Shown here one piece after another: positions 50,829 through 50,986 of a stretch of DNA of 64,000 bases. The DNA is from Octopus vulgaris (Eukaryota): positions 27,156,001-27,220,000 of the forward strand of contig OX597824.1 of assembly GCA_951406725.2 (NCBI GenBank), in the 5' to 3' direction. Each line of letters begins with the position of its first letter. The first letter of the stretch is position 1. Both the position numbers and the translations under genes were made by a program. The notes under the pieces are model-generated. The model saw nothing but the letters and a program-made list of their open reading frames with translations. It made no database searches and was not told where the DNA came from.

Positions 50829-50986
50829 CTTTATTTTAAGCAGCAGAAAATTCAACAAAATCTGTTACTCTGAGTTTCTCGTTGCCGTTCATCAGACAGT
50901 TTTTGCTAGTAAAAACTGTCTGATGAACGGCAACGAGAAACTCAGAGTAACAGATTTTGTTGTATTTTCTGCTGCTTAAAATAAAG
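50829..50986. repeat. Near-perfect 158-bp palindrome
   Basis: ctttattttaagcagcagaaaattcaacaaaatctgttactctgagtttctcgttgccgttcatcagacagtttttg-ctag-reverse complement; 2 mismatched pairs. Confidence 0.95.
50911..50958 (+). ncRNA. Minimal type I hammerhead ribozyme motif (Penelope-like); mirror copy on the minus strand at about 50857-50904
   Basis: ctgt-CTGATGA(50920-50926)-acg gcaa cga-GAAA(50937-50940)-ctc a gag-TA-acag. Helix I ctgt/acag, palindromic helix III ACTCAGAGT, GUA triplet 50947-50949, AATAAA about 30 nt downstream. Helix II is only 2 bp plus a GCAA loop. Confidence 0.7.

Follow-up and report, generated by a model that had tools for sequence, protein, structure and literature searches.

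The question raised by this locus is why an intron of a small tandem-LIM protein gene, which we take to be LMO, contains a near-perfect palindrome with a hammerhead ribozyme motif on each strand. The palindrome is very probably a head-to-head insertion, in its smallest form, of a Hydra-type Penelope-like element (PLE) that is abundant and young; it was likely built from twin cDNAs primed on both nicked (TA)n strands, and its hammerhead is predicted to be inert in the LMO transcript. The feature is real and its layout is known; the addition made by the locus is a quantified hot spot for the joint between the two arms. The anatomy given in the initial annotation holds, while its regulatory reading does not.

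Anatomy of the palindrome

The palindrome occupies positions 50829-50986 of the window, i.e. the whole stretch of 64,000 nucleotides that was analysed. It consists of two 79-nt arms (158 nt in all) with a spacer of 0, in which 77 of 79 positions are paired, the exceptions being 50852T/50963T and 50905G/50910T. The RNA fold of 50800-51020 has a free energy of −144.3 kcal/mol (z −28.6), which none of 200 shuffles equals. A type-I hammerhead core with the conserved CUGANGA, GAAA and NUH is present on each strand. The two mismatched pairs, the sense motif in the right arm, its antisense in the left and, by the motif layout, the predicted cut after 50949 are all as the initial annotation had described them. 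The palindrome and both hammerhead motifs are real.

The whole insertion is longer (50757-50986), as a 72-nt tail extends the left arm only, past the 158-nt palindrome. Both of its ends abut (TA)n, and such flanks would mask any target-site duplication. Its parts are as follows.

50757..50986, no strand: whole insertion, two 5'-truncated pLTR 3' ends of a Hydra-type PLE, head to head (98% match to the pLTR of full-length copies)
50757..50909, − strand: long arm, comprising the pLTR between −14 (counted from the hammerhead core) and its long end ...ACTCCGG, next to which is (TA)n
50757..50828, − strand: tail, present on one arm only, 72 nt (71 nt in the reference copy); the concept of a tail is that of PMC3846280 and PMC11167929
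50857..50904, − strand: mirror hammerhead motif, antisense to the host pre-mRNA
50906-50909: CTAG joint
50906..50986, + strand: short arm, comprising the pLTR between −14 and its short end ...AAATAAAG, next to which is (TA)n
50911..50958, + strand: sense type-I minimal hammerhead motif with palindromic helix III (dimer type), predicted cut after A50949; layout as in Hydra-2_aMil, File S2 of PMC8557442

The insertion shows 3 differences over about 230 nt from a natural family copy, and two changes, 50910 C>T and 50963 A>T, are private to the short (right) arm. The fold-back had been called young or homogenised; the few differences speak for a young insertion, whereas homogenisation is unnecessary since both mismatches are private to the right arm. 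The 64-kb window is without a second copy of the family, 50757-50986 being the sole insertion there.

An assembly fold-back artefact, against which a check had been advised, is ruled out for this type of joint by the asymmetric ends, by its occurrence at 243 loci and by independent contigs that contain the centre. A 68-nt contig of run X1 (depth 96) crosses the centre with 3 other letters and a 62-nt contig of run X10 (depth 2.4) also crosses it, any family copy being a possible source of either. In run X24 (raw DNA, same species label, 3% read), 8 reads in 1.9 Gb were recovered, all on a divergent tail and 0 at the centre. This low count, despite thousands of family copies, could reflect the label, filtering or a lineage-specific expansion.

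Host intron and flanking repeats

The intron 49703-51349 stands as initially annotated; it is bounded by GT..AG, and the adjoining exons are in frame, each with a LIM domain. The nearest splice site is more than 360 nt from the stub. The stub lies in an abundant host repeat, presumably SINE-like, and its surroundings are listed below.

49477..49702, + strand: upstream exon, LIM domain (PF00412, E 1.9e-14)
50250..51255, no strand: abundant host repeat with a central microsatellite, where the PLE stub is inserted; matches to its left and right halves occur at about 10 further sites in the window
50416..50709, no strand: second palindrome (294 nt, 99.3%) next to the long end, in which the left host flank recurs in inverted orientation, with CCGG and then (TA)n at its end
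50711..50756, no strand: (TA)23 target at the long end
50987..51095, no strand: (TA)n/(TACA)n target at the short end
51350..51475, + strand: downstream exon, LIM domain (PF00412, E 3.9e-09)

The end of the second palindrome has the layout CCGG/(TA)23/CCGG (slashes mark boundaries here and below). The inverted flank copy may be a by-product of the same PLE insertion, which hints that host DNA nearby can be copied in inverted form by such insertions. Comparable inverted copies of flanking sequence, with TA runs at their borders, were also seen at L054 (1206-1364 / 1728-1886) and L120 (171-303 / 3730-3862), in a scan of 71 loci, some overlapping, in which 7 of 15 non-window matches were read in detail.

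Identity of the element

The 34-nt ribozyme core has 3,691 exact occurrences in the 2.8-Gb genome against 0 for the control, all genome copy counts being exact pattern searches. Long copies form a unit of about 3.35 kb and contain a 727-aa ORF that starts 157 nt downstream of the sense hammerhead. Pfam and PDB sequence searches of this ORF returned nothing useful; its structural model (pLDDT 90) has TERTs as the top 4 fold matches (best E 3.9e-09), and the RT motifs YRDD and DxxxFYPS are present. A GIY-YIG endonuclease is placed C-terminally in the same ORF (GVVY..YTG at 596-616), and the homolog P0003 is above the cut-off for GIY-YIG PF01541, the query itself being without a Pfam match. The ORF has at least 1,764 homologs.

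Assignment to the Hydra clade rests on RLRWK at 51, DKT at 129, CRLCLLE and NLCRH as the CxxC and CxH beside the conserved E and N, and the insertion preference for (TA)n. The CxCX5C linker is CNCKNESSC in L037, the second C being F in 4 of the 5 ORFs read. The pLTRs stand in partial tandem, with the sense hammerhead, in L036 and L037 (spacing 3,352-3,365 nt), and uninterrupted 727-aa ORFs are found in L036, L037 and L038, which are 97-98% identical over 3.3 kb. Such sequences mark a young family, which is possibly active to this day.

PLEs make up 6.83% of the O. vulgaris genome in a 2026 annotation (PMC13282606), the main text of which, as far as available, mentions no ribozymes. The supplement of PMC8557442 describes (TA)n targeting, ribozymes of like build and a different octopus family, Hydra-1_Obim, with the protein of which P0001 shares several long motifs (by eye). 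The present family is apparently unlisted within the known Hydra clade: 2 of its DNA motifs are absent from the available text of that supplement, and the repeat library of PMC13282606 may include it.

Two other classes of element were considered. A non-LTR retrozyme is rejected, as the locus is a single inverted pair from an ORF-bearing element, without tandem head-to-tail non-coding units. A MITE or palindromic mini-element is likewise rejected on account of the asymmetric ends and the occurrence of the joint on several backgrounds.

Other structures were met beside copies of the family. Another palindromic family, with a hammerhead-like motif (CUGAAGA...GAAA) and a tail on one side only, is inserted next to PLE copies in the same TA runs (L006 1826-1975, L007 1100-1254). 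A different element, which has long inverted repeats at its termini and may be a DNA transposon or MITE, adjoins PLE copies at L062 1659-2743 and L119 2550-2974. At L122 333-1726, a larger inverted structure with mirrored flanks encloses two short arms, which are separated by 1.2 kb and have (TA)n after each of them.

Predicted folding of the hammerhead

In the + strand motif, helix I pairs CUGU (50916-19) with ACAG (50950-53) and is extendable beyond an A.A mismatch, the core is formed by CUGAUGA (50920-26) and GAAA (50937-40), helix II has an A.A pair and then CG-GCAA-CG (2 bp), and helix III is ACUC-A-GAGU. At the gathering score, Rfam gave no match in the window. The isolated right arm reaches −1.1 kcal/mol in the hammerhead fold as compared to an MFE of −11.5 kcal/mol, with helix pair probabilities of at most 0.02, and fold prediction does not yield a stable three-helix hammerhead monomer. 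The doubt that the initial annotation had cast on the activity of a motif with so weak a helix II is well founded. The dimer fold (−12.2 vs MFE −15.2 kcal/mol) is nearer to its optimum than the monomer. Related hammerhead motifs are reported to show no monomer cleavage in vitro in the text available of PMC4209133, and a PLE hammerhead is described as needing the element's protein (PMC11167929, in part).

Within the palindrome, the long hairpin is far more favourable than the hammerhead fold (−124 vs −1.1 kcal/mol), and the hammerhead pairs have probabilities of 0.000, even for a transcript ending at 50958; the expected out-competition of the ribozyme is borne out. The 79-bp hairpin in the LMO pre-mRNA is predicted to bury the ribozyme, which would be inert there. 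Such masking is automatic in every head-to-head insertion, since transcription from either side meets the antisense arm first, and on the predicted folds it is a side effect of geometry. As long dsRNA, the hairpin is a plausible candidate substrate of ADAR or Dicer, as the initial annotation had proposed. No A-to-G places are listed in contigs of RNA-like runs, a type of data that cannot show ends, strand or editing.

The recurrent CTAG joint

The exact joint pattern is common to 243 loci in the genome. The first 100 core matches include 35 close pairs, no more than 10 kb apart, of which 31 are arranged head to head; spacings range from 43 to 5,428 nt. The spacing of the window locus, 58, is found in 6 close pairs, and neighbouring joint spacings form a continuum (43, 50, 53, 65, 75), the two rows at 43 being one duplicated locus. 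A locus-specific switch or an evolved self-masking, as first suggested, is not upheld by a joint shared at so many loci and by a head-to-head arrangement that is the family default. Because the core has 3,691 exact copies and the CTAG joint 243 loci, the palindrome is not an LMO-specific device.

The joint was analysed in 51 loci, namely 50 of the 243 and the window locus. One long and one short end were found in 47 of them, and a truncated or intermediate end in 4. The centre is G-CTAG-C in 25 loci, G-CTAG-A in another 25 and G-CTAG-T only in the window locus; of the A centres, 18 are on the long arm, 6 on the short arm and 1 is unclear. The native sequence upstream of the core is CCATTCTAG-CAAAAAC, and an A centre is expected from extending a cDNA that ends in GCTAGAA. 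A family polymorphism, 73A (39 loci) or 73T (12), which is also present in long copies, has the same state on both arms. The A and C centre types each occur on the 73A and on the 73T background, which makes four combinations and points to repeated formation of the joint. Short-side flanks are in common for only 1 pair among 41 flanks.

Microhomology alone is rejected as the cause of the hot spot. The self-complementary site in helix III anneals more strongly (−7.8 kcal/mol) than CTAG (weaker than −4.5 kcal/mol) and is reached earlier in synthesis, yet this quasi-palindrome has 5 joints as compared to 243 at CTAG.

Local duplication after insertion was noted at two places. L048 and L049 contain the same insertion twice, 60 kb apart and inverted, and L009 contains one insertion twice, 728 nt apart.

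Arm ends across loci

Arm ends were read in 41 simple two-armed events from 66 loci (first 100 core matches), after 25 single-armed, tandem, duplicated or complex rows had been dropped; the sampling requires an intact core on one arm, and BLAST ends are accurate to about 2-3 nt. The short arm reaches further 5' in 15 events and the long arm in 10, while in 16 they differ by no more than 3 nt. The arms of L024 and L028 have no overlap at all. Arm lengths are coupled (both short in 26 events, both long in 13, discordant in 2). Singleton variants are found on both arms in L030, L064, L070 and L092, a pattern that fits fold-back or gene conversion too.

Among the 82 arm 5' ends, 33 are at −19..−13, 2 at −20..−50 and 0 at −51..−170, although dropped rows have arm ends at −71 (L118), −90 (L037) and −104 (L036), and if they are counted the last bin is no longer empty. 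Exact counts in the genome decrease from 2,686 (to −14) to 1,550 (to −22), ordinary divergence being part of this drop. The native pLTR sequence at −22..−11 (e.g. L001, L002) is TTCCATTCTAG, which is both initiator-like and 3' splice-site-like and lies just 5' of helix I; its CCATTCT presumably fits the initiator consensus. The pile-up of arm ends at 13-19 nt upstream of the core suggests a run-off at the 5' end of the RNA.

Proposed origin of the palindrome and its rivals

From the observed family identity, copy number, long and short ends, TA target and recurrent joint, we infer the following course. The element's RT-endonuclease would nick both (TA)n strands, and each nick would prime on the same RNA, at two pLTR sites about 72 nt apart (AG/CAUAU and CCGG/UCUA), both TA-like. 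With priming on the first pLTR of the RNA, both cDNAs would run off about 13-19 nt upstream of the core, at the initiator-like CCATTCT, a step deduced from the DNA. The identical cDNA ends would then anneal via CTAG, and fill-in would give G-CTAG-C or G-CTAG-A centres. In host read-through RNA the antisense arm would be made first, and the hairpin would bury the ribozyme as a side effect. A PLE protein has been reported to nick and extend both strands in vitro, with two internal start sites defining the tail (PMC11167929, in part). The minimal palindromes may thus be strong-stop-like products of a PLE that primes twice on the first pLTR, both cDNAs running off the RNA 5' end and being joined at CTAG; this reading is advanced tentatively, at a little under an even chance.

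The main rival concerns the stop at −13..−19, which may be a block or processing site, such as TTCCATTCTAG, which resembles a 3' splice site, or the 5' border of the extended helix I, and not an RNA start. The native sequence is indeed a pyrimidine tract plus TAG, and the intron of D. virilis Penelope is described as ending at the 5' side of helix I (PMC4209133, in part). However, the joints retain CTAG and up to CCATT, so that the template was unspliced there, and arms passing the stop almost never end in the next 150 nt; a block is possible but rather doubtful. The origin of both arms from a single cDNA (or antisense template) of the same element, which hairpins at CTAG and copies itself, is improbable. 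Self-priming on an antisense template is proposed for such PLE palindromes in the available text of PMC3846280, a small hairpin is possible at CTAG, and variants are common to both arms within each locus. Nevertheless, the non-overlapping arms of L024 and L028 are impossible from a single folded-back cDNA, the short arm is the one that reaches further 5' in 15 of 41 events, and the prevalence of the A centre on the long arm (18 of 25) is a polarity not given by a long-first fold-back. A short-first version, in turn, cannot make the tail, and the precise short end is left unexplained.

The sharing of one joint by 243 loci could also mean that the 230-nt palindrome is a non-autonomous mini-element spreading as a unit. 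This is very unlikely in view of the four combinations of centre type and 73A/T, the A centre in both polarities, the continuum of neighbouring spacings and the short-side flanks common to just 1 pair among 41. It is scarcely credible that the LMO gene has recruited the insertion as a switch in its regulation or as a substrate for editing or small RNAs. Long dsRNA is a generic ADAR substrate and A-to-I editing is heavy in cephalopods, and a 79-bp near-perfect hairpin does lie inside the pre-mRNA intron. Against this, the stub is young and has hundreds of identical counterparts, it is more than 360 nt from the nearest splice site, its ribozyme is of the dimer type and lacks another copy of the family as a partner within the 64-kb window, and motifs of this kind lack monomer cleavage in vitro or depend on the element's protein in the work cited above.

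Significance

For the LMO gene the stub, one of hundreds, is of little weight. Its interest lies in the making of inverted pLTRs and tails of PLEs, a stated open question (PMC8557442, section 15). The young family provides countable constraints, namely the long and short ends, the non-overlapping arms, the coupled arm lengths and the 243-to-5 joint bias, which is not explained by self-complementarity. If the strong-stop reading were true, the joints would map the element's transcription start and form a genome-scale record of PLE inverted-end formation, and every such insertion would silence its own ribozyme in host genes, the antisense arm coming first in read-through RNA. Editing and small-RNA production in an octopus could also be tested on the hundreds of near-perfect 79-bp hairpins that the family provides.

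Comparison with known systems

The octopus family closely resembles the Hydra-clade PLEs of PMC8557442, including Hydra-1_Obim and Penelope-13_HM, in RWK, DKT, the CxCx5C linker and the CxxC and CxH around E and N. It shares with them, in the text available, the (TA)n target and a sense hammerhead with palindromic helix III, helices I and III being as in Hydra-2_aMil, and an inverted 5'-truncated copy is also described for Penelope-13_HM. It differs in its unit of about 3.35 kb, as compared to generally <3 kb in the clade, and in its clear pLTRs and tail; helix II here is just 2 bp over an A.A pair. Its hammerhead is not the same as that of Hydra-1_oBim, a separate family (PMC8557442).

The head-to-head inverted truncated copy, the palindromic joint and the one-ended tail are likewise features of EN+ PLE insertions, such as Adineta Pen2a_Av (PMC3846280; Fig. 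2 legend of PMC8557442), as far as those texts are available. In those insertions, however, the tail is 30-40 nt as compared to 71-72 nt here. Unlike in the inverted pLTR insertions of EN+ PLEs, both copies are here reduced to the pLTR alone, with one joint at 243 loci. Poseidon PAc of Anolis (PMC11167929) is alike in its two internal initiation sites that define the tail, its AT-rich target, the extension of both strands and insertion without need for the hammerhead. It belongs to another clade, the available text of PMC11167929 describes no inverted product, and the TA-like microhomology at both start sites is particular to the octopus family.

The present motif has an extra nucleotide after A9, a short helix I and a palindromic helix III, as do metazoan PLE hammerheads of the minimal type I (PMC4209133) and those of non-LTR retrozymes (bioRxiv 10.64898/2026.07.22.740005). 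Hammerhead pairs on opposite strands, 100-700 bp apart, are already known from the parts available of these two sources. In contrast to the retrozymes, the octopus stub is without a tandem array. Its 10.1-11.1 position is not the conserved G-C. In L1 twin priming, two primers reportedly act on one RNA and their cDNAs are joined by microhomology, which yields an inversion without duplication. Here, each of the two primers would begin within the pLTR and copy one shared stretch, with an inverted duplication as the result.
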